Notes: generated by a model from the sequence alone, not told the origin. DNA of 64,000 nt from Kaistella sp. (GCA_047637995.1 JBLJBP010000055.1:8235-72234), one strand, 5' to 3'; numbered from the stretch's first letter, positions 33,692 through 57,208 are shown. Numbers and translations: made by a program.

Positions 33692-33708
33692 TATCTTTAA
33701 AATATTTG

Positions 33709-33716: not shown

Positions 33717-33792
33717 AGGCTTTTTATGCAATGAAAATCGGCTGCTTTCTTTAAATTTTAATTAATTATTTGCGGTTATCTCCGTCAAACAC

Positions 33793-34911: not shown

Positions 34912-34978
34912 TTTTTAAAGGCTTTTAGCTATTTTAGTTGTTGGCTCCATAAGCCGTAACCAAAACACCCATTCATAA

Positions 34979-35401: not shown

Positions 35402-35410
35402 TGAAAAAAA

Positions 35411-36449: not shown

Positions 36450-36875
36450 CTAATATAAATTTTCTTTTTCAGATTGGACAGGATAATTGATTAGGACTGC
36501 TTTATGTATTCCTTTGAACACGAATAAACTGCCAGCAGCAACACCAATTATTTTATGTTTTTTTGTTACTTTTTCTATATCAGCAAGGGAACCTGCACCA
36601 CCAAGAACCGTTAATGGAAGAGAGGTTCTGCTCCTAATGCCATCGATAAGTTCCATATCAAAACCTTTCATAACACCATCTTGGTCTATTGAATTAATTA
36701 AAATTTCGCCTGCGCCAAATTCTTGCGCTTTCTGGGCGAAGTCAAAAGGCTTGATCCCTTTACCTTTTTTACCATTGTGTGTAAAAACTTGACCGTTTAT
36801 AGGTGCCGGTATGGGTGCTATGAAGAGTACTCTTTTTTTGAATTTCATAGGGCTAGTGCTTTCTTTTAATGACAT
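36450..36875 (-). pseudogene. HisF/WbuZ-like cyclase, C-terminal half-barrel only (N-terminal half missing; ORF intact)
   Basis: 141 aa. FTHNGKKGKGIKPFDFAQKAQEFGAGEILINSIDQDGVMKGFDMELI...LTVLGGAGS aligns by eye to residues ~140-230 of the full-length paralog at 48993..49838. No sequence for strands 1-4 is present. The start ATG overlaps the upstream GT stop (TAATG). Confidence 0.55.
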
Positions 36876-39041: not shown

Positions 39042-40346
39042 TTATTTTACTAAAAGTTCATTACTCGTTTCAATTTTTTTTAAAATATTTGTGTTTTTTA
39101 ATGTTTTAGGTGAAAACAGGAATTTTGAATTATTGATAGAATTGCCCTGATATTCAATAACTTTAAAATCCTGATCTGTTGAATTTCCTGCGATATCAAA
39201 ATTAAAAATATTATTTTCTGTGCTGTTTCTAAGATTGAAAGGCTCCACAACACTTCCCACTGCTCCCATCCAAATTTTAGTATCTACCGTCCCCACATTT
39301 CCTTTAATCGTGGTATCGGTATATTTTGAATAGTTAGAAAGAAAGGCATATTTCACTTGGTCAGCTTTAAACCAAATTTTATTTGATTGATCTTTATTAA
39401 TCAGGGCATTATCTATATCTTTATCTACGGTAAAGTGATAATTGCCACCCACTACTCTTGAAAACGAAATATATTGCTGTGCATTTTTTAAGACTGCATC
39501 TACTTCCATTAGAAATTTTGAATGGGAAGCTACATTTTCACTGGGTACCCCAAAACTCATAGAAAAGCCTTGAAAAGTGCGGTCTGCCTCCATCTGAAGT
39601 TTTATATTGATATTTTCTTTTAATAAATCACTTACTGCAACAGCATCAAATCTAAAACCATAAGCACAGTTTTTCACTTTTATATTCGTAGCGCGCAAAC
39701 TTCCTTTGGTGCTGTTTATATTGGGATCAAATTGTAATGTTAAACCTTTTCCGCCATCAATATAATTGCCTTTATCAATTCCTGGCAAATCATAAATATA
39801 GAGATTGTCCAAGGTAATATTATCAAACCCATTGGTAATAGACACGCCATTGGAGCCTGCATTTTTATTTGAATTTAAACTTGCAGTAATATCAAAATTT
39901 TTGATAATGAGATTTCTAACTAAGTTCAGTTGCAATACATCTGCACCCAATTCAGAGCTTGTTTTCAGCACAGTGCCTCTACCAGCACCAAAAATGGTAA
40001 TAGATTTGCAATCTAATAATTGATCTATGTGAGATTCATCTTGTCTGAATGGAAAATTTCTTGCGCCCACATCATAAATTCCTTTTGGAAAATAAAGGTC
40101 AGATTTTTGTTCGATGCAATATTGAAAAGCTTTTTTAATCTTCAGCCACCGATCATATTTTTGCTCTTCAGACTCAGGAGAAGTAGCAGGATAAACTTGG
40201 AATTGTTGCACATTTACTACAGGATTTTGCCGTGCAGTATTTGTGGATAGAACAGGAGAAACAGCGCCCATCGCATCAATACGAAAAACAGCTTGCACGA
40301 AGAAAAGTGCAAAAACAAAATAATATTTCAATGTTATTTTAGTCAT
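39042..40346 (-). CDS. Secreted right-handed beta-helix (pectate-lyase-fold) protein, unknown function
   Basis: Signal-like N-terminus MTKITLKYYFVFALFFVQAVF. KIKKAFQYCIEQKSDLYFPKGIYDV (Pectate_lyase_3-like start). Repetitive coils such as LIIKNFDITAS...NGVSITNGFDNITLDNLYIYDL. Confidence 0.55.
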   Translation of the reverse strand: MTKITLKYYFVFALFFVQAVFRIDAMGAVSPVLSTNTARQNPVVNVQQFQVYPATSPESEEQKYDRWLKIKKAFQYCIEQKSDLYFPKGIYDVGARNFPFRQDESHIDQLLDCKSITIFGAGRGTVLKTSSELGADVLQLNLVRNLIIKNFDITASLNSNKNAGSNGVSITNGFDNITLDNLYIYDLPGIDKGNYIDGGKGLTLQFDPNINSTKGSLRATNIKVKNCAYGFRFDAVAVSDLLKENINIKLQMEADRTFQGFSMSFGVPSENVASHSKFLMEVDAVLKNAQQYISFSRVVGGNYHFTVDKDIDNALINKDQSNKIWFKADQVKYAFLSNYSKYTDTTIKGNVGTVDTKIWMGAVGSVVEPFNLRNSTENNIFNFDIAGNSTDQDFKVIEYQGNSINNSKFLFSPKTLKNTNILKKIETSNELLVK

Positions 40347-42808: not shown

Positions 42809-44146
42809 TTAGGTCAGCACTTTCACAAGTTCTTCGTGAGTCTCTATGAGGATATTTTTTTTATTTCTAAGAAGAGGAAAAGACATCTCAACCCCCGGCA
42901 AATTTAGCAGAATAACTTTACAATCAAAAGCCGAAGCTTCAAAAAGTGCAGAAGAATATACCCCTAATACATATTTTGACTTTTTCAGCAAGACATACAT
43001 GGACTCTTCATTATTGATTAATTTAATATTTGAAGCGTTTGCAAACAGCTCTTGGAACTGCGCTATTACTTCTTCATTTTCGGCAGGATGCATTTTATAG
43101 AAGATCGTGAACTTTTCAAGTGACGAAGTATTTTCAGCTATAAAATTCATCATTTCCTTAGATCCGTAAGGCTGAGAAACTACTAAGAGCGTGCGCTCTC
43201 CAGTGGGAAGATTTTCTAATTTTTTCACCCATTTGTCAATATGTTCATTTTTCATGGGCTTTATATTGTGCGAAGGTAGTGGCAGTTTGCCAAAAAACAT
43301 TTCTACATTGTCCCAAATATAAAAAACATCAGGGAAATATTCTAACGAGTTTTCAGGGGTAAATGGGAAATTTGAGATTACGTCTTTATCGCTCATCAAG
43401 CCATGTTGCAGCTCATTAACCAAGATTTTATTTTTCTTAGCTGCATCAATCAGCGCAGGTTTATCACACGAATTTGTGAGATATATTTCTTTAGGTTTTT
43501 TCAGCTTAAAAAGTAAATAGTAGAGCCCAAATTCTGCTTTAAACTTTTTTATCTCTGTACTGAAAATACTCACAAGGTTGATTTTTACGCCAAATAATGT
43601 TGAAAGTTCTCCTGCAATCTGCGAAATTATTTGGGTATCTTTTTCAGAAAATCTGGTTTTTATAAATTTTTGTTTCAGTTGCGAAAATATAAAAATAAAA
43701 TCTAAATGTTTAATCTTGATGCTTCTTTTAAACATGGGTAAATCTAGATTATAATTTGTTTCGTAGCGAGTAAAAGAAACTTTTTTCTGTTCTAAGAATT
43801 GGGCAATATATTCTGTATAGATATCGATATAAGCATCTTCATCACGGTATTTTCTACCGCTTTCTATGATGAGTGCATTTTTTTGGGAGCAATCTAAGAA
43901 GGGGTTAAAAAACAGACAGTTTATAAATAATCTGTGCAGAATATTGGTGATTTTTTTTGGAAAAGTTTTAGTGTTAGGTTGTGCATTTCCGGGAATAGTG
44001 GCATCTACAATATGCAGAAAGATTGTGATTCTTGCGATTTGCCAAGGAAATACACCATTTATATTTAAGGAAAGTAGCTGGTGCTTATTTTCAAATTCCA
44101 AAAATTTTTGGGTAATTTCTGGGTAGGTGAATGGTGTGGAGTTCAT
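42809..44146 (-). CDS. Uncharacterised GT-B-like protein; candidate CMP-nonulosonate (legionaminic acid) transferase
   Basis: 445 aa. FYKMHPAE (H353-P354) followed 45 residues later by GVYSSALFEA (S398-S399, E403). This arrangement resembles the HP and SS CMP-binding motifs of bacterial sialyl/Kdo transferases. Confidence 0.4.
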   Translation of the reverse strand: MNSTPFTYPEITQKFLEFENKHQLLSLNINGVFPWQIARITIFLHIVDATIPGNAQPNTKTFPKKITNILHRLFINCLFFNPFLDCSQKNALIIESGRKYRDEDAYIDIYTEYIAQFLEQKKVSFTRYETNYNLDLPMFKRSIKIKHLDFIFIFSQLKQKFIKTRFSEKDTQIISQIAGELSTLFGVKINLVSIFSTEIKKFKAEFGLYYLLFKLKKPKEIYLTNSCDKPALIDAAKKNKILVNELQHGLMSDKDVISNFPFTPENSLEYFPDVFYIWDNVEMFFGKLPLPSHNIKPMKNEHIDKWVKKLENLPTGERTLLVVSQPYGSKEMMNFIAENTSSLEKFTIFYKMHPAENEEVIAQFQELFANASNIKLINNEESMYVLLKKSKYVLGVYSSALFEASAFDCKVILLNLPGVEMSFPLLRNKKNILIETHEELVKVLT

Positions 44147-44147
44147 C

Positions 44148-44657
44148 TTAGATTATAGTTTTAAACCTGAGTAGCTTGGCTGGTACCCCTCCCACAATAG
44201 CGAAAGCAGGCACATCCTTAGACACAACTGAATTTGCACCAATTATGCTATTATTACCTATAATAACTCCAGGTGAAATCACAACATTTGCACCAATCCA
44301 CACCGCATCTCCAATAATTATATCACCAATTTTTGGCAATATTTCTGCTTCATTATTATAATCGGCATCAACAATAGAAGATTGTGTCCATATATTAAAA
44401 CATGGTCCTATTTTGCAATTCTTACCTATTTTAATATTGCTATTTTCGGCTGCTTGTAAGATAGAAAACCTCCCAATGTAGGAGTTTTCATTTATGATAA
44501 TATTTCCTTCCCCATACATAAGAATATTATTTCCATTAAATATAAAAGTAGGATGTATGTCATATTTTGAACGATAAGTACTATATGCGTTTTGTTGCGC
44601 TATATCTAGTAAATAAAAGAAAAACTTACCTATAATTTTACTCAATAATTTTTTCAT
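44148..44657 (-). CDS. Hexapeptide-repeat sugar O-acetyltransferase
   Basis: Left-handed beta-helix repeats IGDAVWIGANVVISPGVIIGNNSIIGANSVVSKDVP. Length 169 aa. Confidence 0.8.
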   Translation of the reverse strand: MKKLLSKIIGKFFFYLLDIAQQNAYSTYRSKYDIHPTFIFNGNNILMYGEGNIIINENSYIGRFSILQAAENSNIKIGKNCKIGPCFNIWTQSSIVDADYNNEAEILPKIGDIIIGDAVWIGANVVISPGVIIGNNSIIGANSVVSKDVPAFAIVGGVPAKLLRFKTII

Positions 44658-45912
44658 AATTTTTTGTATGTGTTGCTTTATACGATAAGATTACTGCACT
44701 AAAGAGATTAAGAATATTAGCAAACAAGACACCTAATGCAACACCTACTATTTTATTTGTAAAGGCATGCACCCCCAGATAGGTTGAACCAATGATAATA
44801 ATTGTATAAAAAATTTGATAACTGTACATGTACTTCCAGCTCTTCATGCTCCACAAAATATTAACACCAATTACAGACCCTTTAACCATTCCTGCTATAA
44901 GAAGTATTTGAAGAACTTGTGTGCTTGCAGAATACTTTGGGAAAAATTGTTCTACTAAACTTGGAATCAAAAAATAGCCGATTATTACTAAAGGAGCCTG
45001 AATTAGCAATAAAACAAAAGTAATTTTTTTCATATAATGCCATAGCAAAAGCTTATCATTAAGTTTAGCATATGAATAGGTCATCTTAGGATATACATAA
45101 CTAGCTATAGATGAACTAAATAGCATGAATAGATTAAGGGAATATAATCCAAAAGTATAAAGACCGACCTGATCCAGATTTGTATATTTAATCAGCCAAA
45201 CTTTGTCTATAGTATTTACAGCAGAATCCATTAGAACGAGTACAAAAATAGGAAAGCCTACTTTTAAAATACTGCTAAACAATTTACCGTCCCAATAAAA
45301 CTTTGTTTTAATTGGTCTGAAAATATGGAGTAATATTACAAAAAACAATAAAGTGATTACTGCTTTCATAATCATACCATAGTAGGTAAAATAAATGACC
45401 AGAACTATCGAACATACATTGAATATAGCTTCATAGAACTGAAGTTTGGATAATTTTGTAAAGGAATTATTAGACCTATAAGTGGACATAAGGTAGGTTT
45501 GGTAAAATGTAAGAATTACAATACAAGTAATTCCCAAAATACCATATCGTAGCTTTTGGCTGTCACTAGGAAATACATAGAATAAAACTATTCCCGCAAT
45601 TAATACGAGGATAGATATTGCTAGTGTAAATGTTTTTGTGACAGCTGCTAATTTTTCAGCCTTTTTGTTGTCTCCCTTTCCATAGGCAAATGGCAACTCT
45701 AAACTTAGCCCATTTATAACACCACCTTGAATAAACACAGAATAAGTTAAAGCTAATGATAACGAACTCCATAAACCCAAATCTTCTGGAGACACATATT
45801 TGGCAATAATAAAGCCCACCAACATTGTAGCAAATGCTTTAATGATGGAACTAGATGAGTAGAGTACTGCTGTTTTATACTTATAAATCTGTTTACTTAT
45901 TCTTTCAATCAT
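44638..45912 (-). CDS. wzx: Polysaccharide repeat-unit flippase (Wzx, MOP superfamily)
   Basis: 424 aa, about 12 TM helices, typical polysaccharide-biosynthesis-protein N-terminus. Confidence 0.7.
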   Translation of the reverse strand: MIERISKQIYKYKTAVLYSSSSIIKAFATMLVGFIIAKYVSPEDLGLWSSLSLALTYSVFIQGGVINGLSLELPFAYGKGDNKKAEKLAAVTKTFTLAISILVLIAGIVLFYVFPSDSQKLRYGILGITCIVILTFYQTYLMSTYRSNNSFTKLSKLQFYEAIFNVCSIVLVIYFTYYGMIMKAVITLLFFVILLHIFRPIKTKFYWDGKLFSSILKVGFPIFVLVLMDSAVNTIDKVWLIKYTNLDQVGLYTFGLYSLNLFMLFSSSIASYVYPKMTYSYAKLNDKLLLWHYMKKITFVLLLIQAPLVIIGYFLIPSLVEQFFPKYSASTQVLQILLIAGMVKGSVIGVNILWSMKSWKYMYSYQIFYTIIIIGSTYLGVHAFTNKIVGVALGVLFANILNLFSAVILSYKATHTKNYEKIIE

Positions 45913-45915
45913 CGA

Positions 45916-47016
45916 TTAGTTTTTCAGAACCCATCGTTCTAGTTGATCTTTTTCAAATAGATCTGGATTGTATAATGGCTCTATAATTTTCCAAAATTCT
46001 TTTTCTGAATAGTTTAGAAATTCACAAAAATCTCTTACGGCCAGAGGGTCTAAAGCATGATCATGTTTTTTTACCAACTCAAATGCTTCTTCACGTGATA
46101 GCAAGCCATATCTTACCATTCTTGCAGCATAATCTGTAGCGGAGGCATGACCAAATTTGGGATATTTCATCCAAGAATGCACTAAATAGGCGCGGGTATC
46201 TATTTGGTCAAAATTTTCTATATGGTGCGTTCTATTCCACTCATGTGTCAAATCATGGAAGCCATGTTTTTTGGCAATTTCATAGTTTTTGAAACTGTTC
46301 CATTCTACGAAATAGCTCAGGTAGATGGGTTCTAAAGTAGCAATTTCTTCGGCTGTTGGTGGTTCAAAGAAATTGAGATCTTTGCGGCTCACCCCATTCT
46401 CTAATAATTCTTCGGTAGGAATACCTGCTCCTACTCCGTTATTGATTTGATCTTTTGCTGAATAGGTTTCTACAGCATTGTCTCCGCCATATTCATAGGC
46501 AACATTTTCCCCGTAAATGAGTAGTGGAGTATTAAATTTCACTGCCATGTGAAGCGGGTACGTATAGATATAGCGATCTACAAAATAAGTAGGTTTGCCA
46601 TATTTTTTAAAGGTGTAATTCATTGCGGCTTTTTGCGCTCTGATATTGGGTTTCATACTTATAATATCGCAACCGAAAGATTCTGAGATATTTTTCAAAT
46701 TGTGCATACCTGCATTTGTCATCGGGAAATTATCTTCTACCGTCACCAATAAAGGATTCATACCCAGCACTTCTTTAAACATATACACTTGGTAGTGACT
46801 GTCTTTTCCGCCGCTTACTGCAATCATGCAATCGTAACCATTTTCTCCGTTTCTTCCCCTGTGTTTGTCGCAAAGGGTTTTCAGCTCTTCAAACCTTTGT
46901 GGATAATTTGTTTGCTTTCTTCTTTCAAAAGATTGGCATGCAGAACATACGCCATGTTCGTTAAAAGAAATTCCTGGTCTAGTATCTGGCATTACGCAAA
47001 TTGAACAATATTTCAT
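45916..47016 (-). CDS. N-acetyl sugar amidotransferase (WbuX/WbpG/PseA family), paralog 1
   Basis: N-terminal Zn-ribbon CSIC...CSAC and PP-loop AVSGGKDSHYQ. Length 366 aa. Confidence 0.85.
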   Translation of the reverse strand: MKYCSICVMPDTRPGISFNEHGVCSACQSFERRKQTNYPQRFEELKTLCDKHRGRNGENGYDCMIAVSGGKDSHYQVYMFKEVLGMNPLLVTVEDNFPMTNAGMHNLKNISESFGCDIISMKPNIRAQKAAMNYTFKKYGKPTYFVDRYIYTYPLHMAVKFNTPLLIYGENVAYEYGGDNAVETYSAKDQINNGVGAGIPTEELLENGVSRKDLNFFEPPTAEEIATLEPIYLSYFVEWNSFKNYEIAKKHGFHDLTHEWNRTHHIENFDQIDTRAYLVHSWMKYPKFGHASATDYAARMVRYGLLSREEAFELVKKHDHALDPLAVRDFCEFLNYSEKEFWKIIEPLYNPDLFEKDQLERWVLKN

Positions 47017-47105
47017 TTTAGTCTTGTTTTATGAATGTTTTTTTCGAAAGTTTAAAATTTTGGTTAATTGTTGTATTTTGATATTGTGCTACTACTAAAT
47101 CTTTT

Positions 47106-48338
47106 TTAGTCATCTAAACCAGTTTTTGCGACATTGTGTCTAAGCTTCCATTGCCCTTCTTGATCTTTACCCCAAAGGTGCGGTGATCTAAATTGGTCAC
47201 AAAGTTGGTGAAAATATTCAGGTTCCATGTCTATATACTTCATAATTTCATCAAAGTACCGGTCTGGGAACTCCCCATCAAATCTATTGACCAATGCTAC
47301 ACCTTCCTCACGAGTAAGATGTCTATTTCTAATTTCTTGTGCGGCATCATAGCTAGCCCTTCCGATTCCAAATTTAATAAAAGTGGTATAGAAGTGCAGA
47401 TCATCGATCTTGTCATCAATCCCGCTGTACTTGCTAAAAGTGCCTTGTGTTCTATGTGGTCTTGCTTTGAAGCCTGTATTTTCTACCGCATAATAATACA
47501 CTTCTTGTGGCGTCCACTTGAGATAGTAGCCCAAATAATGCACCTCTATATTTGCCCGCTCCAGGTCTTCTAACTTAGGTGGAAGATAAGACATAAGATC
47601 ACTTAAGCGCACATCATATTTTTCTACGAGTTCTTTCACAGAAACGCCTGCTAAAAAGACCTCATCTAAATGCTCAAAACTATAGTAAGATTTATCACGA
47701 AGTGACGAAGTATTATCTGCCAATGGATTTCCATATTCTGCTTCGTTTTCTCCGTAGAATATTAGATTAATTCCGTGTTGAGCAGCAATCTTTGGGGCAA
47801 GGTTTTTTTGTCCTAAGATAAAGGTCTGGAAAGGATGTAAAAGGTTTTCAATAGAAAGTTTTGTCAGCAGCTTCATGACTTTCCCATTTCTATAGAAGGA
47901 GATATTATCAAAACCGCTATCTAACCAGTTTCTCCAGTTTTTCAAGCCATAGTCTGTGTACAAAATTGGGGGCCAAGTGACGGTAAGCGGATTCATTCCG
48001 TATTTGTACTTTAAAACATGCGCTTGGTAGGCACTGTCTTTTCCGCCGCTTCCTGGCACAAGACAGTCATAAGAGCCATCGTTTTTTCTATGTTTGTCTA
48101 AAAGTTTTACCAGTTCTTCTTCACGCATTCCCCAGTCTATACCATCTTTGATTTCTGCAGTTCGGCATGCATCACAAACGCCATGCTCATCAAAATTCAT
48201 GGTTGTTTTTTTACTTTCAATGGTGTGTTTAAATTCTACCGCAGAGGTAGGTCTTTGGTTAGACATTACACACTTGGTGCAAAATTTCACTTCCTGTGGC
48301 AGGCCATAGTATGCCTCGAGGTTATTATTTTCTGACAT
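47106..48338 (-). CDS. N-acetyl sugar amidotransferase (WbuX/WbpG/PseA family), paralog 2
   Basis: N-terminal Zn-ribbon CTKC...CDAC and PP-loop VPGSGGKDSAYQ. Length 410 aa. Clearly divergent from paralog 1. Confidence 0.85.
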   Translation of the reverse strand: MSENNNLEAYYGLPQEVKFCTKCVMSNQRPTSAVEFKHTIESKKTTMNFDEHGVCDACRTAEIKDGIDWGMREEELVKLLDKHRKNDGSYDCLVPGSGGKDSAYQAHVLKYKYGMNPLTVTWPPILYTDYGLKNWRNWLDSGFDNISFYRNGKVMKLLTKLSIENLLHPFQTFILGQKNLAPKIAAQHGINLIFYGENEAEYGNPLADNTSSLRDKSYYSFEHLDEVFLAGVSVKELVEKYDVRLSDLMSYLPPKLEDLERANIEVHYLGYYLKWTPQEVYYYAVENTGFKARPHRTQGTFSKYSGIDDKIDDLHFYTTFIKFGIGRASYDAAQEIRNRHLTREEGVALVNRFDGEFPDRYFDEIMKYIDMEPEYFHQLCDQFRSPHLWGKDQEGQWKLRHNVAKTGLDD

Positions 48339-48986
48339 TTAAAGGAGATTATTAGTTTGAGCCCAATTTTTATAAATAGATAGTCCTTTTGCTGCACTTT
48401 TTTCTGGATGAAATTGGGTAGCAAAAATACTTTTGTATGCTACGGCAGAGCAAAATTCTATCCCGTCATAATTTGTTAAAGTTAAAATACAAGAATCATT
48501 TTCTGGCTTCACAAAATAGGAATGGATAAAATACATAAAATCATTTTCTTCTAACTCTACAAGTGGCGTATTCTCCCAGTTTTGCTGTGCTGCATAGATT
48601 TTGTTCCAAGAGATGTGTGGTACTTTCACCACTTTCCCATTGAGGTCTGCAGGGAATTTTCTAATGACACCCGGTATGAGATTTAATCCTTTTCCGGCGC
48701 CAAACTCTTCACTTTCAGAAAACAGCATCTGCTGGCCTAAACAGATTCCGAACAAAGGGGTATCATTTGCAATTTTTTCTTTAATTGCGGTTTCTAAATC
48801 TAAGTGTCGCAGGTTGCTCATCCCCTCATTGAAAGCGCCTACACCTGGCAATACCAGTGCATCTGCATTGATAATATCTACGCGTTCTGAACTGACAATA
48901 GCGTTCATGCCCACGGTATCACATGCTTGTTTCACGCTAAACAAATTTCCTAATTTGTAATCGATGATTACTACTTTCTTTTTCAT
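48339..48986 (-). CDS. hisH: Imidazole glycerol phosphate synthase-type glutaminase subunit (WbuY-like)
   Basis: Class I glutamine amidotransferase with LPGVGAF, GICLGQQ (catalytic Cys) and QFHPEKS. Confidence 0.9.
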   Translation of the reverse strand: MKKKVVIIDYKLGNLFSVKQACDTVGMNAIVSSERVDIINADALVLPGVGAFNEGMSNLRHLDLETAIKEKIANDTPLFGICLGQQMLFSESEEFGAGKGLNLIPGVIRKFPADLNGKVVKVPHISWNKIYAAQQNWENTPLVELEENDFMYFIHSYFVKPENDSCILTLTNYDGIEFCSAVAYKSIFATQFHPEKSAAKGLSIYKNWAQTNNLL

Positions 48987-48992
48987 AATCTT

Positions 48993-49838
48993 TTAAAATC
49001 TACATGCTATCTGGTTTGCCAATAGTTCTTTTTTCACTTCTGAAATGCTGCAAGGCTCGAAGGTATGGAAATTTCTTTTTTGTTTTAAAAACTCTACATT
49101 TCCTTCTAGGTCAGAACCTTTGGTTTCATTTTCTTTTATATAATCATAGTGCAGAATTGAAGAGATCATTGCGGCTTGTGCCTTTCCATTTTTCAATATT
49201 TCTGCAACATGTTTTTTATTGCCTGCCCCTCCGTGCACGATCACTGGTATATTAACAAGACTGCTTATTTTGGTAACCAACTCATCATCAAAACCCTGGC
49301 CTGTACCTTCTCTATCTACAGAGGTAATAACTATTTCGCCTGCACCTAATTCATTGACTTTTTGTGCCCATTCAAATACGTCTATCCCGGTATATTCTCT
49401 CCCGTTATCTGTATAGGCAAGGTATTTCCCATCTTGTTCTTTAATTGCTTCTATAGCTACCACAATGGTGGAAGAGCCAAACATTCTGGAAGCATCCTTG
49501 ATGAGTTGTGGGTTTTTGATCGCTGCTGTATTGAGGCAAACTTTATCTGCCCCTACTCTCAACACTTCCTTAATATCTGAAATAGACCGGAGGCCACCAC
49601 CTACTGTGATGGGGATAAATATTTTTTTTACTGTTTCTGAGATGATGTCATGTAGGCTATTTCTTTCGTATAAAGATGCTACCACATCCATAAACATCAG
49701 TTCATCTGCACCTTGTTCATAATAGTATTTTGCAAAATCTGAGGGTTTCCCTAAAACCCTTAAACCTTCTAGATGAATTCCTTTCACCAAATTGGGACCC
49801 TTTATATCTAAGCGGGGGATTATTCTTACTGTATTCAT
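48993..49838 (-). CDS. hisF: Imidazole glycerol phosphate synthase-type cyclase subunit (WbuZ-like)
   Basis: RIIPRLDIKG, TVGGGLRS, ELGAGEIVITSVDREGT, VHGGAG. Has a long C-terminal extension (281 aa). Confidence 0.9.
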   Translation of the reverse strand: MNTVRIIPRLDIKGPNLVKGIHLEGLRVLGKPSDFAKYYYEQGADELMFMDVVASLYERNSLHDIISETVKKIFIPITVGGGLRSISDIKEVLRVGADKVCLNTAAIKNPQLIKDASRMFGSSTIVVAIEAIKEQDGKYLAYTDNGREYTGIDVFEWAQKVNELGAGEIVITSVDREGTGQGFDDELVTKISSLVNIPVIVHGGAGNKKHVAEILKNGKAQAAMISSILHYDYIKENETKGSDLEGNVEFLKQKRNFHTFEPCSISEVKKELLANQIACRF

Positions 49839-49847
49839 AGTTTAGTT

Positions 49848-50597
49848 TTAGATTGCGGTCCATCCTCCATCTACCATTAGGTTGTGTCCTGTGATAAATG
49901 AAGCATCATCTGAGAGCAGAAAAGAAATAGCAGGTGCCATTTCTTGAGGGTTCCCTAATCTTTTTAGCGGAGATTTCTCACTGTATTTTTTGATGAAAGA
50001 TGGATGCTGATTTTTTTCGTCTAATACGCCACCTGGTGACACACAATTTACCCTGATGTTATATTTTCCGTTATAGGACGCTAAATACCTAGAGAAATTG
50101 ATGACACCCCCTTTGATGGCTGCGTATGCTGCGGGAGAAGTTCCGCCATATTCTTCGTAGAGGGTAAAATCATTGCCTACTACTCCATAGATGGATGCAA
50201 TATTTACGATAGAACCAGAATTTTGTTCTTTCATGATTTCTATTGTTTTCTGACAAATTAAGAATACTGCATTGAGTTGCATATCTATATTTTCAACCCA
50301 AGATTCATACGGAATATCTTCAAATTTGGCGCCCCAGTCTGCAGTTCTGGGGTAAGCCAGATTTACCAAGCCGTCTATTCTTCCATATTTTTCAAAAACT
50401 GTTTGCAAAAGCTCTTCAATAGCTTTGGGCTGGGTGATATCGTAGTTTAAAAATAATGCTGCTTCAGAATCGAATGTGTTCAGATCTACAGCAATTACTT
50501 TTGCGCCGCAGGCTGCTAAATGTTTTAGAGATGCTCTACCGATGAGCCCACCTGCTCCGGTAAGAATGATGACTTTATTTTCTAATCCTGCATACAT
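49848..50597 (-). CDS. Short-chain dehydrogenase/reductase (PtmA-like)
   Basis: LTGAGGLIGRA, NIASIYG, YAAIKGG (YxxxK). Length 249 aa. Confidence 0.8.
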   Translation of the reverse strand: MYAGLENKVIILTGAGGLIGRASLKHLAACGAKVIAVDLNTFDSEAALFLNYDITQPKAIEELLQTVFEKYGRIDGLVNLAYPRTADWGAKFEDIPYESWVENIDMQLNAVFLICQKTIEIMKEQNSGSIVNIASIYGVVGNDFTLYEEYGGTSPAAYAAIKGGVINFSRYLASYNGKYNIRVNCVSPGGVLDEKNQHPSFIKKYSEKSPLKRLGNPQEMAPAISFLLSDDASFITGHNLMVDGGWTAI

Positions 50598-51499
50598 AGT
50601 CCTAAAATAGTATTTGCGTCAGTGATCGTGTTAAATGTCTTTTTATCCCTGACAATCTTTTCTATAAAAAATCTCATTTGTTCCGTATAGGTTTCAAGAA
50701 TTTTTTGCGAAGATGCAAATATACATTTACTTTCAAATTCTATAGTATTTTTTAGAAGATTAACAAGGTAGGTTCCACTATCTGTCACAATTTCCATTGT
50801 TCTTTTGCTATCTTTCCGATAATAATTTAATACAATAGAAACCTGAAAATCAGGGTAGCTCCAAAGATAATTAGCGTAATCTATTGCAGATATTTGTAAT
50901 GAAGAAACGCTAGAAAAAAAAGATCTTGTGGCACCGGGCGGACCAAAAAGCCAATAAACATAGTCTAACTCATGAATTAAATCTATATGGACGCCGCCGC
51001 CCATTTCTTTGTTTGCACTATATATTGTTCTGAAGTCTGTTCGAGGTCTCCAATCTGGGAGAAAGGAGCCACAATAGACATTTACTTCATTAATTCTTTT
51101 ATGTGCAATCAGGGTTTTTATTTCTTTGATTGCGTCTAAAAACCTGAGGTTACATGCAATGTAAGTAGGGATTTTCTGGTTTTCTATTTCTGCAACCAGT
51201 TGTTGTGTTTCTTCAGTTATTTCTGAAAAAAGAGGTTTTTCTATGAAAAGTGGTTTATTATATTTCGCTAATGTTCTGATGGAGTTGAAGTGTTCTGATG
51301 TAGGGTTGGATATTATCACAAAATCTATACTCTGCATATCTATTTCAGAGAGGCTGAGACAACTGATGGTGCTCTCTACTTCATTTATACTGCCTTTCCC
51401 GCTGCGCAACGCATAAATTTTTGCTTGCGCATCAATTTCCAAAATTGCTGAAATATGTTTTTTTGCAATGGAACCTAGTCCTACTATGAGCACATTCAT
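50582..51499 (-). CDS. Gfo/Idh/MocA-family oxidoreductase (PtmF-like)
   Basis: MNVLIVGLGSIAKKH Rossmann N-terminus and EKP motif (LFIEKPL). Length 305 aa. Confidence 0.75.
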   Translation of the reverse strand: MNVLIVGLGSIAKKHISAILEIDAQAKIYALRSGKGSINEVESTISCLSLSEIDMQSIDFVIISNPTSEHFNSIRTLAKYNKPLFIEKPLFSEITEETQQLVAEIENQKIPTYIACNLRFLDAIKEIKTLIAHKRINEVNVYCGSFLPDWRPRTDFRTIYSANKEMGGGVHIDLIHELDYVYWLFGPPGATRSFFSSVSSLQISAIDYANYLWSYPDFQVSIVLNYYRKDSKRTMEIVTDSGTYLVNLLKNTIEFESKCIFASSQKILETYTEQMRFFIEKIVRDKKTFNTITDANTILGLCMQD

Positions 51500-51504
51500 T
51501 TCAC

Positions 51505-52233
51505 CTAATATTTAAAATCAAAATCCAGTTTTTTATTTTCAATTAAGTAAGACATCAGTTCGAAATCAATCTGATGGTCTAAATCAAAACACAAGTGTGG
51601 TACTTCATAAACAATACTTTTATCTGTGATAACAGTTTTATACTTCTGTTCAAAAAATTGTTTTTTGAAAATATAAAACGAAGCATTCATATCATATACC
51701 CGAGGTGCAGATTGACGCGTAAGAAACTCTCCTTTTTTGCAAAGCGCTACAAAACCGTCAGGCGTTTCTTCCACCATATTGAAATAGGGATTTCTATTTG
51801 CTGGGCTTACTGAAAATAAATTAAGCGCTGCACTGTTTCCAAATAGAATGTTAATAGAATTTCCTAAATCTTGGGCAGTTCTCAGCGGTGAAGTCACATC
51901 TAAATCTATCACAAAATCATAGGTAACGTTGTTTTTTGCTTCGGCAAATCTGTAAACATCTTCTATGGCATCTAATTTTCCGGCGGTATCACTGGCCAAA
52001 AATTCTGGTCTGGTATAAGACAAATCCACATTTTGAATAGCTAAAGCTGCAACAACATTTTTAATTTGGGCTGAATCTGTGGACAAAAACACATCTAAAT
52101 CATATTTTTGGCTAAGCTCTAAAGCCACCTCTAAAGAGTAAGAAATGAGCGGCTTGCCCCTGATTTCCTTTATGTTCTTACCAGGAACTCCTTTAGAACC
52201 TCCTCTTGCACAGATTGTTATAAGGCCTTTCAT
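51505..52233 (-). CDS. legF: CMP-nonulosonate synthetase (acylneuraminate cytidylyltransferase family; LegF/PtmB-like)
   Basis: ICARGGSKGVPGKNIKEIRGKPLISYS. Length 242 aa. Confidence 0.8.
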   Translation of the reverse strand: MKGLITICARGGSKGVPGKNIKEIRGKPLISYSLEVALELSQKYDLDVFLSTDSAQIKNVVAALAIQNVDLSYTRPEFLASDTAGKLDAIEDVYRFAEAKNNVTYDFVIDLDVTSPLRTAQDLGNSINILFGNSAALNLFSVSPANRNPYFNMVEETPDGFVALCKKGEFLTRQSAPRVYDMNASFYIFKKQFFEQKYKTVITDKSIVYEVPHLCFDLDHQIDFELMSYLIENKKLDFDFKY

Positions 52234-52237
52234 TTTA

Positions 52238-53290
52238 CTAAAGTTTTATGTGTTTGATGTCTTCCTGGGCTTTCTTGTAATCTTCATGTTTGCCAATATC
52301 TAACCAATATCCATTAATAGGATAGGTAATGAGTTTTAAATTCATTTCTAAAACTTTTTCCATTAGATCTGTGATGTCATAAAATTCATCGTGGGGAATC
52401 ATTCTTAGCAATTTCTTGTTCATAATATAAATTCCCGCATTAGAATAATAGGTATATCTCGGCTTTTCTTTAAGAGATTTTACCTCGGCGCCATTTTCAC
52501 CTATTTCTAGAACCGCGTAGGGCACATCCACATGATAAGATGTGGTAGCTACTGCCATATCTGCATTAGAATCCTGATAGGTTTTGAAGAAATCTGAAAA
52601 ATCTATATTGGTAAGCAAATCACTATTCATCACAATAATGTCTTCATTTTCAAAATCCGGCACCAGCAATACAGACCCAATAGTACCTAAAGGTTTTTCT
52701 TCTTTTACATATCTGATATCTACATCTTTTTGTGTGCCATCACCAAAATAATCTTCTAACTGCTCTCCTAGATAGTTGATGCTTAAATTTATTTTTTTAA
52801 TACCGAAATTAATTAATCTATCTATGTTGTACTCTATTATAGGTTTTTCTCCTACTTTCAGAAGGGGTTTGGGGGTCTTATCAGTTAGTGGTCTCAATCT
52901 TTTTCCTTCGCCACCCGCCATCAGCACTGCATCTGCTGGAATCAGGCTAGTACGAAAATTGAAATCTAAAATATCTACGATCACCAAATCCTCATCAACA
53001 ATAGGAATTATTTTTATTAAATCATTTCTAAATTTGTCTAATTGTTTAAGATCATATTGATTTAATTTAATATAAATTGGGTTAGGCTGTACAAAACTCA
53101 GAAGCTGATCTTCAAAGCCAAGTCCCTTGATGAAACCTCTGCGTAAGTCTCCATCTGTGAGCGATCCTAAGAGTTTTCGGTTTTCATCTACCACAAATAG
53201 TATAGAAGATGGTGCTATTTCGTCTAATTTAATGAGTGCATCGCGCACTGTTTTTCCGTGGTAAATGATGTGCTTTTCAACAATGTTCAT
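52238..53290 (-). CDS. ptmE: CBS-domain nucleotidyltransferase (PtmE/LgaF-like sugar-1-phosphate nucleotidyltransferase)
   Basis: N-terminal CBS pair (LGSLTDGDLRR), then MAGGEGKRLRPLTDKTPKPLL. Length 350 aa. Confidence 0.8.
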   Translation of the reverse strand: MNIVEKHIIYHGKTVRDALIKLDEIAPSSILFVVDENRKLLGSLTDGDLRRGFIKGLGFEDQLLSFVQPNPIYIKLNQYDLKQLDKFRNDLIKIIPIVDEDLVIVDILDFNFRTSLIPADAVLMAGGEGKRLRPLTDKTPKPLLKVGEKPIIEYNIDRLINFGIKKINLSINYLGEQLEDYFGDGTQKDVDIRYVKEEKPLGTIGSVLLVPDFENEDIIVMNSDLLTNIDFSDFFKTYQDSNADMAVATTSYHVDVPYAVLEIGENGAEVKSLKEKPRYTYYSNAGIYIMNKKLLRMIPHDEFYDITDLMEKVLEMNLKLITYPINGYWLDIGKHEDYKKAQEDIKHIKL

Positions 53291-54441
53291 GGCAAATTAT
53301 AAAAAGTCTTTATGGAAGATATATTTTCATTTTCCATTATTTTGTTTAATATGATTTTGGAGGCACCTAGATTATCATACGGATTCTCCAGTGACACCAG
53401 TTTATTCTGAAATTCTTGATCTTTCAGCTTTTCAAAGGCTGCTGCAATTTCATACTCGGAATTGCCGGTGTTGATAACGCTTTCTGCCTGGATTCTTCCT
53501 TTTTGTCTGTCACCGATATTTATGGTGGCTGTATTTAGAGATGGTGCTTCCACTATACCACTTGAGCTATTTCCTACAATGGCATCACAAACTTTAACCA
53601 TTGACAAAAATCTCAATGTTCCCAATGAGCTATACGCTTTTCCTAATTCCGGATATTTATTAACAAAATCGTCAATCATTTGATTGATGATTCTGCCGTC
53701 TGTATCCGCATTTGCTTTGGTAAATATAAAGAAACTATCTTTTTGAGTACGGACTACATTGAGCAGATTTTGAAATTGCTGCGCAGATGAAATGCTCCCT
53801 AAGGTTTCTGGATGAAAAGTAATCTGATAATTGTATTTTTTAAATTGAATATTAAGATCTTCTTGCAATTGGTCTTTGGTAAGAAGTGTGAGTTCACGTA
53901 TATTATCTAAGCCAATAGCCCCAACATTGTAAACATTTTCAGGACTTTCTCCCAACTGAATTACGCGTTTTCTATAGGCTTCAGTAGAAGTAAAATGCAA
54001 ATGACTAAGTTTAGTAATGGCGTGTCTTATTGCATCATCATAAGCACCTTCAGTGATTTCTCCTCCGTGCAAATGTGCGATAGGAATTTTAAAAATTGTA
54101 GCTGCCGACACAATAGCAAGCATTTCATATCGATCTCCTAATATCACAATAAGATCTGGGCTTAGTCTGGAAAAAACATCTGCTAAATTGATCATTGCCA
54201 AACCCATTGTTTTGCAGACACTTGCAGAAGTATCAGAAGACAATAGTATTTCAACTTTTTCATTGATGGGAAAACCATCATCAAGAATGGATTTGTAGGT
54301 AAGACCAAACTCAGGGGACAGGTGTGCGCCTGTAGCGATGATCTGCAGTTCTAATTGTTCCGAATCTTTTATTAACTGCATCAAAGGTTTAAGCAGACCA
54401 TATTCTGCGCGCGTTGCAGTGATGACACAAATCTTCCTCAT
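53287..54441 (-). CDS. legG: NDP-sugar hydrolysing 2-epimerase (NeuC/LegG type)
   Basis: MRKICVITATRAEYGLLKPL, LGDRYE, HLHGGE. Length 384 aa. Confidence 0.85.
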   Translation of the reverse strand: MRKICVITATRAEYGLLKPLMQLIKDSEQLELQIIATGAHLSPEFGLTYKSILDDGFPINEKVEILLSSDTSASVCKTMGLAMINLADVFSRLSPDLIVILGDRYEMLAIVSAATIFKIPIAHLHGGEITEGAYDDAIRHAITKLSHLHFTSTEAYRKRVIQLGESPENVYNVGAIGLDNIRELTLLTKDQLQEDLNIQFKKYNYQITFHPETLGSISSAQQFQNLLNVVRTQKDSFFIFTKANADTDGRIINQMIDDFVNKYPELGKAYSSLGTLRFLSMVKVCDAIVGNSSSGIVEAPSLNTATINIGDRQKGRIQAESVINTGNSEYEIAAAFEKLKDQEFQNKLVSLENPYDNLGASKIILNKIMENENISSIKTFYNLP

Positions 54442-55448
54442 AGCACTATCAAATCATCTTGTGAAAAATCTCTTTTTGCTTGATTACCTAAAACAAGATC
54501 CCAATTCATTGGAGAAATGCCGGTTCCTGGTCTTTTTACAGCTAAATTGTCTTCAGAGAATACCGTTCCTTTTTCAATATCTTTCTTTGCTACAATACTT
54601 TTCCGTGCGATTTCTATATTTTTCATTTCAGAAGCGCTTGGTTTTTTAATTCCATCACCAGAAATGGCTTGTTCAATATTTCGAATAGCAGCTACCATCT
54701 TTTTTAGTTCAGAAGGATCTAAAGAGGCGGCATGATCTGGCCCTTCCATCGTTTTGTCTAACGTGAAATGTTTTTCAATTATGGCTGCACCTAATGCAAC
54801 AGCCGCTACTGGAACTTCAATACCTAAAGTATGATCTGAATAACCTACTGCAGTACCGAATTTTTGCTGAATCGTTAGCATTGCCTTCAGGTTTACATCA
54901 GCCATTGGTGTAGGATATTCTGTATTGCAGTGAAGAATAGTAATATCTTCTTTTGTTTTATTTTCTTGTAAAAAAACGTGTATTGCTGCTTCAATATCTT
55001 CCATAGTACACATTCCGGTGGAGAGAATTACTTTGCTGAAAAGCTGGGCTGCTTTCCTTAGGTAAGGCAAATTAGTAATTTCCCCGGATGGAATTTTCAC
55101 CATATCTAAGCCTATTTCTTTGAGGTATGCTAAAGATTCTAAATCAAATGCAGTTGAAAAGAATTGAATATTTTTTAGTTTACAGTAGTCTGTTAGTTTC
55201 TGATGATCCTGATGAGAAAGTTCTAATTTCTGAAGCATCTCTAACTGTGTATCTTCTGAATTTCCGGTATTTTTAATTTGGTAGTCCGCTTTTTTGGCTG
55301 ATTTAGAAACTAAACTTTCTGCTTTGAAGGTTTGAAATTTCACATAATCTACGCCTGCTTCCACAGCGGCATCTATCAGCATAAAGGCATTTTCTAAACT
55401 CCCGTTATGGTTCACACCTGCTTCAGCAATAATTTCAACTTTTGTCAT
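54438..55448 (-). CDS. legI: Nonulosonic acid synthase (NeuB/LegI type)
   Basis: IIAEAGVNHNGS, KFQT, and a C-terminal SAF domain. Length 336 aa. Confidence 0.85.
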   Translation of the reverse strand: MTKVEIIAEAGVNHNGSLENAFMLIDAAVEAGVDYVKFQTFKAESLVSKSAKKADYQIKNTGNSEDTQLEMLQKLELSHQDHQKLTDYCKLKNIQFFSTAFDLESLAYLKEIGLDMVKIPSGEITNLPYLRKAAQLFSKVILSTGMCTMEDIEAAIHVFLQENKTKEDITILHCNTEYPTPMADVNLKAMLTIQQKFGTAVGYSDHTLGIEVPVAAVALGAAIIEKHFTLDKTMEGPDHAASLDPSELKKMVAAIRNIEQAISGDGIKKPSASEMKNIEIARKSIVAKKDIEKGTVFSEDNLAVKRPGTGISPMNWDLVLGNQAKRDFSQDDLIVL

Positions 55449-56074
55449 TTAATAAGTTTTTGTGCGGGATTTCCCACCCAGATTTCATTTTCAGGAATGT
55501 CTTTCAGTACTACACTACCAGCTCCTATGATGACGTTCCTACCTATAGATGTTCCTTGTTTGATGAAAGAGTTACCACCTACAAAAGAATTTTCGCCTAC
55601 CGTTACATTTCCTGCTAAAACAGCACCTGGTCCTATATGAACTCCATTTTCAATACTGCATTCATGCTCGATAATACTTGCGGTATTGATGATGCAATTA
55701 TTTGCAATCTGCACAAAAGCATTTATCGCAACATTAGCACCTATGAAATTTCCTACACCAAATTTCGTATAATTACTTAAAACTGAAGCAGGATGAATAA
55801 TATTTAACAATTTCTTATTTTTCTGCAAAATCAGTTGAGCGACTTTCTGCCGGATTGCGTTGTCTCCTATTCCCAGAATATAGGCATCTGCAATATTCCA
55901 GTTAAAAGCATCACTACCTTCGTCTCCTAGGTACTGAAGGTCAAAGGGATTATTTGGAGCTTGTTCTTTTTCGCAATAAAAGTTCGTGTGCAGTCCCATA
56001 AGTTTTGCTGCATCTAAAACAACAAAAGAATGGCCAGAGTAGCCAATAATTGCTATGTTAGATTTATCTGGCAC
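55445..56074 (-). CDS. legH: Amino-sugar N-acetyltransferase (PglD/NeuD/LegH type)
   Basis: N-terminal IAIIGYSGHSFVVLDAA plus C-terminal hexapeptide repeats. Length 209 aa. Confidence 0.8.
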   Translation of the reverse strand: MPDKSNIAIIGYSGHSFVVLDAAKLMGLHTNFYCEKEQAPNNPFDLQYLGDEGSDAFNWNIADAYILGIGDNAIRQKVAQLILQKNKKLLNIIHPASVLSNYTKFGVGNFIGANVAINAFVQIANNCIINTASIIEHECSIENGVHIGPGAVLAGNVTVGENSFVGGNSFIKQGTSIGRNVIIGAGSVVLKDIPENEIWVGNPAQKLIK

Positions 56075-57206: not shown

Positions 57207-57208
57207 AC

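Follow-up and report, generated by a model that had tools for sequence, protein, structure and literature searches.

The window, a 64,000-nucleotide stretch of Kaistella sp. DNA (GCA_047637995.1 JBLJBP010000055.1:8235-72234), carries two different N-acetyl sugar amidotransferase genes, A and B, beside a single hisH/hisF pair at positions 45916–49838. Our preferred reading, to which we give a probability of roughly 0.5, is that they form two independent modules for the amidination of legionaminic acid (Leg), which would yield the same product, with HisH/HisF serving B alone. The family and clade membership of both proteins, the neighbourhood statistics, the homology breakpoints and the intactness of the conserved residues were observed directly. 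The pairing of A with B is uncommon; each part on its own is already known.

Gene layout of the locus

Positions 45916–49838 are filled by four intact minus-strand ORFs, transcribed in the order hisF-like (48993–49838, 281 aa), hisH (48339–48986, 215 aa), amidotransferase B (47106–48338, 410 aa) and amidotransferase A (45916–47016, 366 aa). The first three are packed 0–9 bp apart, with 6 bp between hisF and hisH and 0 bp between hisH and B, the hisH stop codon abutting the B start codon. A follows only after a spacer of 89 bp (47017–47105, minus strand), the junction of the two modules. No terminator-like site was found in this spacer, and A and B are probably co-transcribed. An earlier reading of the DNA, made from the sequence only, had placed the amidotransferases upstream of the glutaminase/cyclase pair; on the minus strand they lie downstream of it. 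Its count of two intact, strongly diverged amidotransferases (366 and 410 aa) and one complete HisH/HisF pair was confirmed by the ORFs, TIGR03573 and tblastn. A tblastn search of the whole window revealed no third amidotransferase and no second complete hisH/hisF, and the sole other match was a HisF-type C-terminal remnant at 36462–36791.

Upstream on the same strand lies the Leg pathway block (49848–58396), recognised from its ORFs and, for its last two genes, from Pfam/NCBIfam matches. It comprises legB, legC, a PglD-like N-acetyltransferase gene, neuB, neuC, ptmE, a CMP-transferase gene (ptmB/legF), a ptmF-like GFO oxidoreductase gene and a ptmA-like SDR gene, and its gene order matches that of the Leg blocks in the related loci L005, L006, L008 and L168, with 55–85% protein identity. 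The whole is a surface-polysaccharide locus of the Wzx/Wzy type that holds both known kinds of Leg acetamidino-forming enzyme.

Family membership and intactness of A and B

Against TIGR03573 (NCBIfam; WbuX, N-acetyl sugar amidotransferase; cut-off 203.2 bits), A scored 355.2 bits (E 4.5e-106, profile positions 1–344 of 344) and B 348.1 bits (E 6.3e-104, positions 1–343 of 344). The NASAT motifs have been defined as a tetracysteine zinc motif (CxxC...CxxC) and a PP-loop (SGGxDS) (PMC10607449). In A, the two CxxC pairs are C4, C7, C24 and C27 and the SGGKDS PP-loop is at residues 68–73; in B, they are C20, C23, C55 and C58, with SGGKDS at 97–102. The translations thus bear out the Zn-ribbon and PP-loop that had been noted in both paralogs. 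Essentially all family-conserved columns are also kept in both, and the loss of catalytic residues from one paralog, considered in the sequence-only reading, was not seen. The A copies of loci with both genes keep 141–143 of 143 conserved columns, and B keeps 116/116 both in the window and in L012.

A and B share 30% identity over their full length. They are deep paralogs, each within a tight clade, and represent two old and widespread lineages, not local duplicates. An AlphaFold model of A, of moderate quality (pLDDT 66.5), had PDB 8WEX as its top Foldseek match (E 4e-16, TM 0.75/0.72). For B, the 8WEX fold is supported by a direct sequence match (E 5e-160).

Amidotransferase A and PtmG of Campylobacter jejuni

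The PtmG sequence was obtained by translating the Cj1324 mRNA printed in supplement 3 of PMC8687705. It is 57% identical to A over the full length (370 columns, 447 bits) and 27.6% identical to B (124 bits), and its identity to other A-type proteins is 60–65%. In the tree, none but A-type sequences fall within the smallest clade that unites A with PtmG. PtmG is a divergent member of the clade, with changes in 13 of the 140 A-family conserved columns and the other 127 kept; A and its Kaistella jeonii counterpart are 86% identical. Mutant work credits PtmG with converting CMP-Leg5Ac7Ac to CMP-Leg5Am7Ac, and the literature basis for this conversion is in Campylobacter only (PMC3766260; PMC5378307).

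The A gene stands at the end of the Leg block after hisF-hisH-B in the window, directly after ptmA in L005–L008, and between ptmE and ptmF in Aliarcobacter and Campylobacter mucosalis. A is most likely a stand-alone enzyme of the PtmG (Cj1324, LegA) type, for which we infer both the substrate and the independence from HisH/HisF. Like PtmG, it is encoded in a ptm-type Leg block with no hisH/hisF immediately adjoining. However, PtmG acts on Leg for flagellin O-glycosylation, whereas A lies within a Wzx/Wzy polysaccharide locus, and the ptmH methyltransferase gene is missing there.

The C. jejuni flagellar glycosylation island is a further parallel, having one hisH/hisF pair and two diverged amidotransferases of the family, PseA and PtmG (both named in PMC5378307), each linked to a nonulosonic acid. 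Its enzymes are encoded several kb apart and serve two sugars (Pse and Leg), whereas the window has a Leg pathway only and adjacent genes. We take the C. jejuni hisH/hisF pair to adjoin pseA and to lie a few kb from ptmG, so A-type enzymes might draw on a distant or housekeeping HisH/HisF.

Amidotransferase B, LpNASAT of Legionella and the HisH/HisF pair

B is about 65% identical to L. pneumophila LpNASAT (PDB 8WEX) over residues 5–404, and the two fall into one clade. The A/B alignment has a 15-residue gap opposite B residues 31–45, an extra stretch between the CxxC pairs. Among the family members aligned in the 8WEX paper, such a stretch of about 15 residues occurs in LpNASAT only (PMC10607449). 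By these comparisons, B is of the Legionella (LpNASAT/ORF28) type, and like LpNASAT it is encoded in a Leg locus. Leg5Am7Ac is a residue of the L. pneumophila O-antigen, and the Legionella LPS cluster is described as having one ptmG homolog, ORF28 (PMC3766260), whereas the window adds a PtmG-type gene 89 bp 3' of B. The HisH protein of the window scored 201.9 bits against TIGR01855 (cut-off 105.4) and also matched Pfam GATase. Its translation contains the GICLG cysteine and an HPE motif, which we take to be parts of the catalytic triad, and it is predicted to be a HisH-type class I glutaminase.

The HisF-like protein matched Pfam His_biosynth with 217 bits and fell just under the cut-offs of two equivalogs, TIGR03572 WbuZ (269.5 against 299.7) and TIGR00735 hisF (269.1 against 294.55); with NF038364 it scored 202 bits, below the cut-off of 310. 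R5, E46, K99 and E168 are invariant in 59/59 B-linked HisF homologs, and all but one of the 59 have Glu at position 130. These features point to a separate B-linked subfamily, and the protein is most likely the ammonia-channel subunit, a predicted partner of B. The Legionella HisF gene, lpg0749, presumably lies in the LPS cluster, judging from its locus tag. P. aeruginosa O5 WbpG with HisH2/HisF2 and M. maripaludis AglX/AglY/AglZ likewise combine an amidotransferase with HisH/HisF paralogs to form an acetamidino sugar, but act on ManNAc3NAcA-type sugars (for the role of WbpG, see PMC10607449). Of the characterised amidotransferases, the tree covered WbuX, 8WEX and PtmG.

The L-FucNAc arm and the WbuZ remnant

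The window also carries L-FucNAc genes, namely fnlA, a cupin ORF, fnlB and fnlC (32555–36445, minus strand), with 70% identity between FnlA and its E. coli O145 counterpart. On the same strand, 4 bp upstream of fnlA, a 141-aa ORF (36450–36875) represents the C-terminal remnant of a WbuZ/AglZ-HisF2-type gene. It covers profile positions 139–247 of 248 of NF038364 (the AglZ/HisF2 NCBIfam family) and is 44.5% identical to the C-terminus of E. coli O145 WbuZ. At the same site, K. jeonii has a hisH remnant and a frameshifted wbuZ. The order agrees with that of the O145 cluster, wbuX-hisH-wbuZ-fnlA-fnlB-fnlC-GT4, the remnant and fnlA-fnlB-fnlC standing exactly in the O145 position. WbuX/WbuY/WbuZ belong to the same enzyme family and share the three-component logic of hisF-hisH-B, but of the window's own WbuXYZ-type module only 110 WbuZ residues are left.

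With A, E. coli O145 WbuX shares 23% identity (73.6 bits), and with B 25% (46.6 bits, a partial match); its place in the tree is beside a third type and not within the A or B clade. The phylogeny joined A with PtmG and B with Legionella 8WEX, and put neither in the WbuX lineage. This distance, the best 80 loci of each type, in which fnl was never near B and near A only together with Leg genes, and the separate WbuZ-type remnant of the fnl arm do not support A or B as a WbuX-type enzyme with L-FucNAc as its substrate.

Neighbourhoods of A and B in other genomes

We took a census of the best 80 A loci and the best 80 B loci. Both samples are biased, being the top hits only, with at least 584 candidates for one census and at least 575 for the other. 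Among the best 80 B loci, 41 of the 53 with enough flank had hisF and hisH directly upstream of B in the same orientation, and neuB was present in 23 of the 27 long ones; neither a true A gene nor fnlA was found near B in any of the 80. Thus, hisF-hisH-B behaves as a fixed unit. Among the best 80 A loci, from 80 species, only four had B. Of the 52 long A loci in this census, hisH/hisF was within 10 kb in two and absent in 50. As B is usually accompanied by HisH/HisF and A almost never, the pair most probably supplies B, and A would act on its own. The loci with two HisHF-linked amidotransferases (L134, L149, L156 and L159) have two hisH/hisF pairs.

The long A loci of the best-80 census also bear on the sugar. 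neuB was present in 31 of the 52 and fnl in six, always together with Leg genes, so that Leg genes without fnl occurred in 25 and fnl without Leg genes in none. Leg genes were absent within 10 kb in 21 of the 52, mostly from Oscillospiraceae, and the acceptor of A may not be Leg everywhere.

Homology breakpoints between the two modules

The window combines what its close relatives have singly, either ptmA-A or ptmA-hisF-hisH-B, and the homology breakpoints are sharp. L008, L006 and L007, which have A only, match the window collinearly as far as 49841–49849 and again from 47019–47030; with the B-only relatives L168, L169, L170 and L086, collinearity extends to 47104–47107. The closest B relatives (93–95% identity) have no A gene, and the closest A relatives (83–86% identity) have no hisF-hisH-B. 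The order hisF-hisH-B-A is also found in the Acidobacteriota MAG L012, which has fnlABC in the same locus, about 7 kb upstream of the pair, and hisH-B-A is found in the Verrucomicrobiota MAG L030. Both types are present in Aliarcobacter butzleri and Gemmiger as well. The A+B pairing is thus rare yet recurrent.

A proposed pair of routes to one modification

According to the preferred reading, the GDP-linked (ptm-type) pathway would supply the locus with CMP-legionaminic acid, and both known acetamido-to-acetamidino solutions for Leg would sit at the end of the Leg block. In the first module (hisF-hisH-B), HisH would hydrolyse glutamine and the HisF-like barrel would hand on the ammonia; B would use ATP and its PP-loop to activate the acetamido carbonyl, with release of AMP and PPi, and the oxygen would be displaced by ammonia. 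The second module (A, of the PtmG clade) may carry out this reaction with no glutaminase of its own, probably drawing on free ammonia. HisH/HisF would then be owned by B and not shared, A and B would not be subunits of one enzyme, and neither would be the L-FucNAc enzyme. We infer the substrates and the regiochemistry, and the product of both A and B is most likely CMP-Leg5Am7Ac. Each lineage is linked to Leg5Am7Ac in its model organism, Campylobacter for A and Legionella for B. A and B would represent two routes to one modification that differ in their nitrogen source and were united in a cassette-like swap at the 3' terminus of the Leg genes. If they were redundant, decay of one would be expected, yet the order is kept in L012 and L030, and both genes are also kept in A. 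butzleri and Gemmiger, which hints at non-redundant roles.

Such roles might consist in complementary amidination, with A and B each modifying its own acetamido group. N5 and N7 of Leg could be one such pair of targets, Leg and an N-acetyl sugar other than L-FucNAc another, and the glycan would then contain two acetamidino groups. The dual amidination of the sequence-only reading stands as a possibility in this form, which we hold to be conceivable but doubtful. A and B are intact under purifying selection in A+B loci, hisF-hisH-B-A recurs across distant phyla at 69–77% identity, and two amidotransferases per Leg locus are recurrent, since L134, L149 and L159 are Leg loci joining B to a third type. 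However, the tie of both lineages to one product makes it the less economical account, we found no mention of Leg5Am7Am or Leg5Ac7Am in the literature searched, and the combination is rare in the best-80 censuses (4/80 A loci, 0/80 B loci). That one gene is a dispensable passenger not yet decayed, left by recent recombination of a B-type Leg block with an A-type downstream block, seems unlikely. The breakpoints fall exactly at the B stop codon and just upstream of the A start, the closest relatives have one module or the other, and the WbuZ remnant demonstrates gene decay in the locus, but neither A nor B has lost conserved residues. Moreover, L012 has the same four-gene order and similar downstream genes at only 57–77% identity, indicating that the combination can persist for long.

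The model first proposed, in which one paralog converts L-FucNAc to L-FucNAm, the other acts on Leg and a single HisH/HisF supplies the ammonia, is slightly less probable still. The presence of fnlABC is in its favour, a take-over by A is conceivable after loss of the WbuXYZ-type module, and L012 combines the pair with fnlABC. Its L-FucNAc arm is contradicted by the distance of WbuX from both clades, by the clade of Leg-specific PtmG that contains A, and by the best-80 censuses, in which B was never seen with fnl, nor A with fnl alone; a shared ammonia supply fits poorly with A loci that normally lack HisH/HisF, with the fixed hisF-hisH-B unit and with the two pairs of the double systems. Least probable by far is an obligate heteromer of A and B, which had also been suggested. 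In its favour are the adjacency and probable co-transcription of the genes and the dimer seen in LpNASAT crystals (PMC10607449), but about 95–100% of the sampled loci have one type and lack the other, and the 8WEX authors point out that the family does not conserve the residues of the dimer interface (PMC10607449).

Downstream of A, a 445-aa protein with a polysialyltransferase-family domain (42809–44146, minus strand; PF07388, 36.7 bits) has counterparts in K. jeonii (60%) and in the A+B locus L012 (39%), and is a candidate transferase for the (modified) Leg residue.

Two diverged amidotransferases beside one HisH/HisF pair

Four intact ORFs on the minus strand constitute the unit. In transcription order, they encode a HisF-like protein of 281 aa (49838-48993), a HisH of 215 aa (48986-48339), amidotransferase B of 410 aa (48338-47106), and amidotransferase A of 366 aa (47016-45916). 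The gaps among hisF, hisH, and B were 0-9 bp, and A followed B after a spacer of 89 bp. Both amidotransferases matched TIGR03573 (N-acetyl sugar amidotransferase, "WbuX") over its whole length, with 355 bits for A and 348 bits for B (NCBIfam cut-off, 203 bits). Each contained two CxxC pairs and the SGGKDS PP-loop, and their mutual identity was 30%. HisH passed TIGR01855, and the HisF-like protein was a clear His_biosynth barrel that scored just under the equivalog cut-offs of WbuZ, HisF, and AglZ/HisF2. No further amidotransferase and no complete hisH or hisF were found elsewhere in the 64 kb window. Because the ORFs were intact, the family matches full-length, and no other copies present in the window, the sequence-only reading was correct in describing two diverged amidotransferases with one HisH/HisF pair; it had placed them upstream of the pair, and they are actually downstream of hisF-hisH in transcription order. 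A promoter and terminator scan of 44000-51000 gave a signal no higher than background. The AlphaFold model of A, of moderate confidence (pLDDT 66.5; shallow alignment of 11 sequences), served for a fold-level match only.

The unit forms the end of a complete legionaminic acid (Leg) block (58396-49848), which is preceded by wza/wzc and comprises legB, legC, a PglD-like acetyltransferase, neuB, neuC, ptmE, a CMP-transferase, a ptmF-like oxidoreductase, and a ptmA-like SDR. Downstream of A were wzx with an acetyltransferase, a 445 aa protein, wzy with glycosyltransferases, the L-FucNAc genes fnlA-fnlB-fnlC, a WecA-type initiating transferase, and rml genes. The 445 aa protein (42809-44146, minus strand) has a polysialyltransferase-family domain (PF07388) and is conserved in Kaistella jeonii (60%) and in the Acidobacteriota locus L012 (39%). 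It is a likely candidate for the transferase of the Leg residue.

Lineages of the two amidotransferases

Relatives of A with 66-86% identity occurred in at least 584 species of many phyla, and B had relatives in Flavobacteriia (89-95% identity) and in other groups (53-77%). The amidotransferase ORFs of 85 loci centred on A scored approximately 540-680 bits against A and 90-160 bits against B, or the reverse, and none was intermediate. Two tight clades, A and B, were obtained in a neighbour-joining tree. By sequence, A and B are members of two old lineages and not the products of a local duplication.

The C. jejuni PtmG sequence, a 373 aa translation of the Cj1324 mRNA in supplement 3 of PMC8687705, fell inside the A clade. 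Its identity was 57% with A across the whole protein, 60-65% with other A-type proteins, and only 27.6% with B; it kept 127 of the 140 conserved columns of the A family. B shared approximately 65% identity with LpNASAT of Legionella pneumophila (PDB 8WEX) and, like it, had additional residues between the two cysteine pairs that bind zinc, a stretch that according to the authors of that structure is absent from other aligned family members, including two Campylobacter proteins (PMC10607449). The 8WEX authors also list two neighbouring proteins of Vibrio vulnificus (WP_011149293 and WP_011149294). By these identities and the clade placement of PtmG and 8WEX, A belongs to the PtmG type and B to the Legionella type. 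Of the homologs proposed for a phylogeny in the sequence-only reading, the tree covered WbuX, placed outside both clades, and the Legionella enzyme 8WEX, placed in the B clade, and it leaves out PseA, WbpG, and LfnA, as well as AglX. When an Aliarcobacter A protein was used as the query, Campylobacter mucosalis was the sole Campylobacter among the best 120 matches. Neither gene had a blastn match in 5,426 complete genomes, which were searched for an E. coli serogroup whose O-antigen structure is known. The plasmid collection contained diverse family members, some records with two copies, none of them characterised.

The named Legionella HisF gene is lpg0749, a locus tag that presumably puts it in the same LPS cluster as ORF28, the gene of LpNASAT. 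PtmG is credited with converting CMP-Leg5Ac7Ac to CMP-Leg5Am7Ac (PMC3766260; PMC5378307), and ORF28 of the Legionella LPS cluster is described as a PtmG homolog in a bacterium with Leg5Am7Ac in its O-antigen (PMC3766260). By the product of PtmG and the presence of ORF28 in a Leg5Am7Ac-bearing Legionella, both lineages are tied to a single change, the 5-acetamidino group on Leg. Acetamidino groups neutralise the negative charge of nonulosonic acids, and C. jejuni ptmG mutants show that they affect the charge of the surface, its antigenicity, and colonisation of the host. No enzyme assay of the N-acetyl sugar amidotransferase family was found in the literature searched, and its one structural paper calls the family little characterised (PMC10607449).

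HisH and HisF accompany the Legionella type

For a census, ORFs were scored against the window proteins in two sets of 80 loci, one of metagenome loci around B and one of species loci around A, each the best 80 hits of a larger set with flanks of up to 10 kb. Among B loci with enough flank, 41 of 53 had hisF and hisH directly upstream on the same strand, and neuB was present in 23 of the 27 B loci of at least 15 kb. A true A gene was found in none of the 80 B loci, and neither was fnlA. B occurred in four of the 80 A loci. Only two of the 52 long A loci had a hisH/hisF pair, and both also contained B; neuB was present in 31 of the 52, and 21, mostly from Oscillospiraceae, had no Leg genes nearby. 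All six A loci with fnl genes also had Leg genes. Four metagenome Leg loci carried a B-type gene together with a second HisHF-linked amidotransferase, which was of a third type in L134, L149, and L159 (23-29% identical to A) and a divergent B in L156; these loci had two hisH/hisF pairs, one for each enzyme.

Based on this census, the simplest reading is that B would have HisH/HisF as its own partner, and that A would work without one. A may use free ammonia, by analogy with the ammonia- versus glutamine-dependent forms of other PP-loop amidotransferases. Sharing of the pair by both enzymes, as the sequence-only reading had suggested, was rejected on gene neighbourhood, because A loci mostly lacked the pair and loci with two HisHF-linked enzymes had two pairs. 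Its other suggestion, a heteromeric enzyme, was rejected on the same census as an obligate A-B complex.

R5, E46, K99, and E168, which we take to be the ammonia gate residues of Thermotoga HisF, were invariant in the B-linked HisF subfamily (59/59 sequences). Residue 130 of the HisF-like protein (48993-49838, minus strand) was Glu, as in 58 of 59 B-linked homologs, and is Asp in E. coli WbuZ. In the histidine-pathway HisF, this position is presumably the catalytic Asp of the cyclase site, and the Glu may mark a loss of cyclase chemistry.

Origin and persistence of the pairing

In the loci with the closest relatives of A (K. jeonii L006, L007, Myroides L008), A directly followed ptmA, and collinearity with the window extended to 49841-49849 and resumed at 47019-47030. 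The loci with the closest relatives of B (L168 and L170 at 95%, L169 and L086 at 93%) had hisF-hisH-B and then no A, and their homology stopped at 47104-47107, the stop codon of B. These breakpoints in A-only and B-only relatives indicate that hisF-hisH-B is a 2.8 kb cassette, which some loci have directly after ptmA and others lack. As a rule, a locus has either A or the cassette at this position. The 385 aa gene after B in L168 and L170, considered as a hidden amidotransferase, resembled neither A nor B, nor any of the reference proteins.

Both types also occurred together elsewhere. The Acidobacteriota MAG locus L012 had the order ptmA-hisF-hisH-B-A and, behind it, wzx, acetyltransferase, transferase, and wzy genes like those of the window plus fnlABC; a Verrucomicrobiota MAG had hisH-B-A, and Aliarcobacter butzleri (L001, L002) and Gemmiger had both types within one locus. 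A kept 141-143 of the 143 family-conserved columns in A+B loci, and B kept all 116 in the window and L012. Neither gene shows decay, and the loss of conserved catalytic residues that the sequence-only reading had considered for one paralog was not observed. The A+B arrangement is real, intact, and rather rare, occurring in approximately 5% of A loci and in no B locus of the 80 sampled. Both of its modules were known before, and normally one stands in for the other.

L-FucNAc is an unlikely substrate

In E. coli O145, the FucNAm reference, the gene order is wbuX-hisH-wbuZ-fnlA-fnlB-fnlC. Its WbuX was 23% identical to A and 25% identical to B. In the window, a 141 aa ORF (36875-36450, minus strand; homology at 36462-36791) ended 4 bp before fnlA. 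Its last ~110 residues are the C-terminal remnant of a WbuZ/AglZ-HisF2-type protein, matching profile positions 139-247 of 248 with 44.5% identity to O145 WbuZ, and its first ~28 residues had no HisF homology. At the same place, K. jeonii (L006, 19327-20305) had a hisH remnant and a frameshifted wbuZ without wbuX, an earlier stage of the same wbuZ decay. The remnants in both genomes indicate that a WbuXYZ-type module of its own formerly served the FucNAc arm in this lineage and has since been lost. Considering the position of WbuX outside both clades, this lost module, and the linkage statistics, L-FucNAc is unlikely to be a substrate of A or B. Of the two substrates named in the sequence-only reading, Leg gained support from the PtmG and Legionella lineage ties, whereas L-FucNAc was disfavoured by the low identity to WbuX and by the fnl linkage. 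Two amidotransferases beside fnl genes should not be annotated as FucNAm enzymes unless the lineage is checked.

Competing readings of the pairing

At a probability of roughly 0.5, we favour the reading that A and B are two routes to the same Leg5Am7Ac that differ in nitrogen source; it joins the shared tie to the 5-acetamidino group with the uneven distribution of HisH/HisF. That the two enzymes modify different acetamido groups is unlikely. Their joint preservation in distant phyla is consistent with it, but both lineages point to one and the same group, and no report of Leg5Am7Am (doubly amidinated Leg) or Leg5Ac7Am was found in the literature searched. It is doubtful that A and B were kept because they amidinate different nitrogens, giving Leg5Am7Am, or Leg5Am and a second acetamidino sugar. 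If this were true, glutaminase-coupled and glutaminase-free family members would be naturally paired, and a Leg5Am7Am residue would no longer have the net negative charge that nonulosonic acids carry.

The cassette breakpoints would also suit one copy being a passenger of recombination, which is improbable given the intact conserved columns of both genes. FucNAm formation with a shared HisH/HisF pair accords with the fnl genes in the locus, but the lineage and census results make it very improbable. An obligate heteromer, suggested by the adjacency of A and B, is hardly credible beside so many loci with one type alone.

The comparison yields the useful result that the Leg-linked enzymes form two separate lineages: the PtmG type almost never has a dedicated HisH/HisF, and the Legionella type almost always does. 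A strain with A beside B is a natural system for asking whether the PtmG type uses free ammonia, whether HisH/HisF serves the Legionella type only, and whether both have the same regiochemistry.

Other observations

Oscillospiraceae loci (L023, L032-L037, L059, L085, and others) contained A-type genes at 66-72% identity whose 10 kb flanks lacked nonulosonic acid genes, and some of these A-type genes adjoined GT2 glycosyltransferases and an ABC transporter. An Akkermansia metagenome contig (L003, 10001-12511) had two tandem A-type genes, both of 367 aa, ahead of Leg genes; the related genome L004 has one.

A 434 aa protein of the polysaccharide locus (39042-40346, minus strand) had a predicted signal-like N-terminus, no confident Pfam match, and 73% identity to a K. 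jeonii protein. Sphingobacterium L005 had a pectate-lyase-fold protein in a similar position. Between rmlA (25825-26685) and an rmlB-like dehydratase gene (27765-28844) lay a 292 aa ORF6N-domain (Rha-like regulator) gene (26762-27640, minus strand), which looks like a mobile-element or defence-associated insertion within the dTDP-rhamnose genes.
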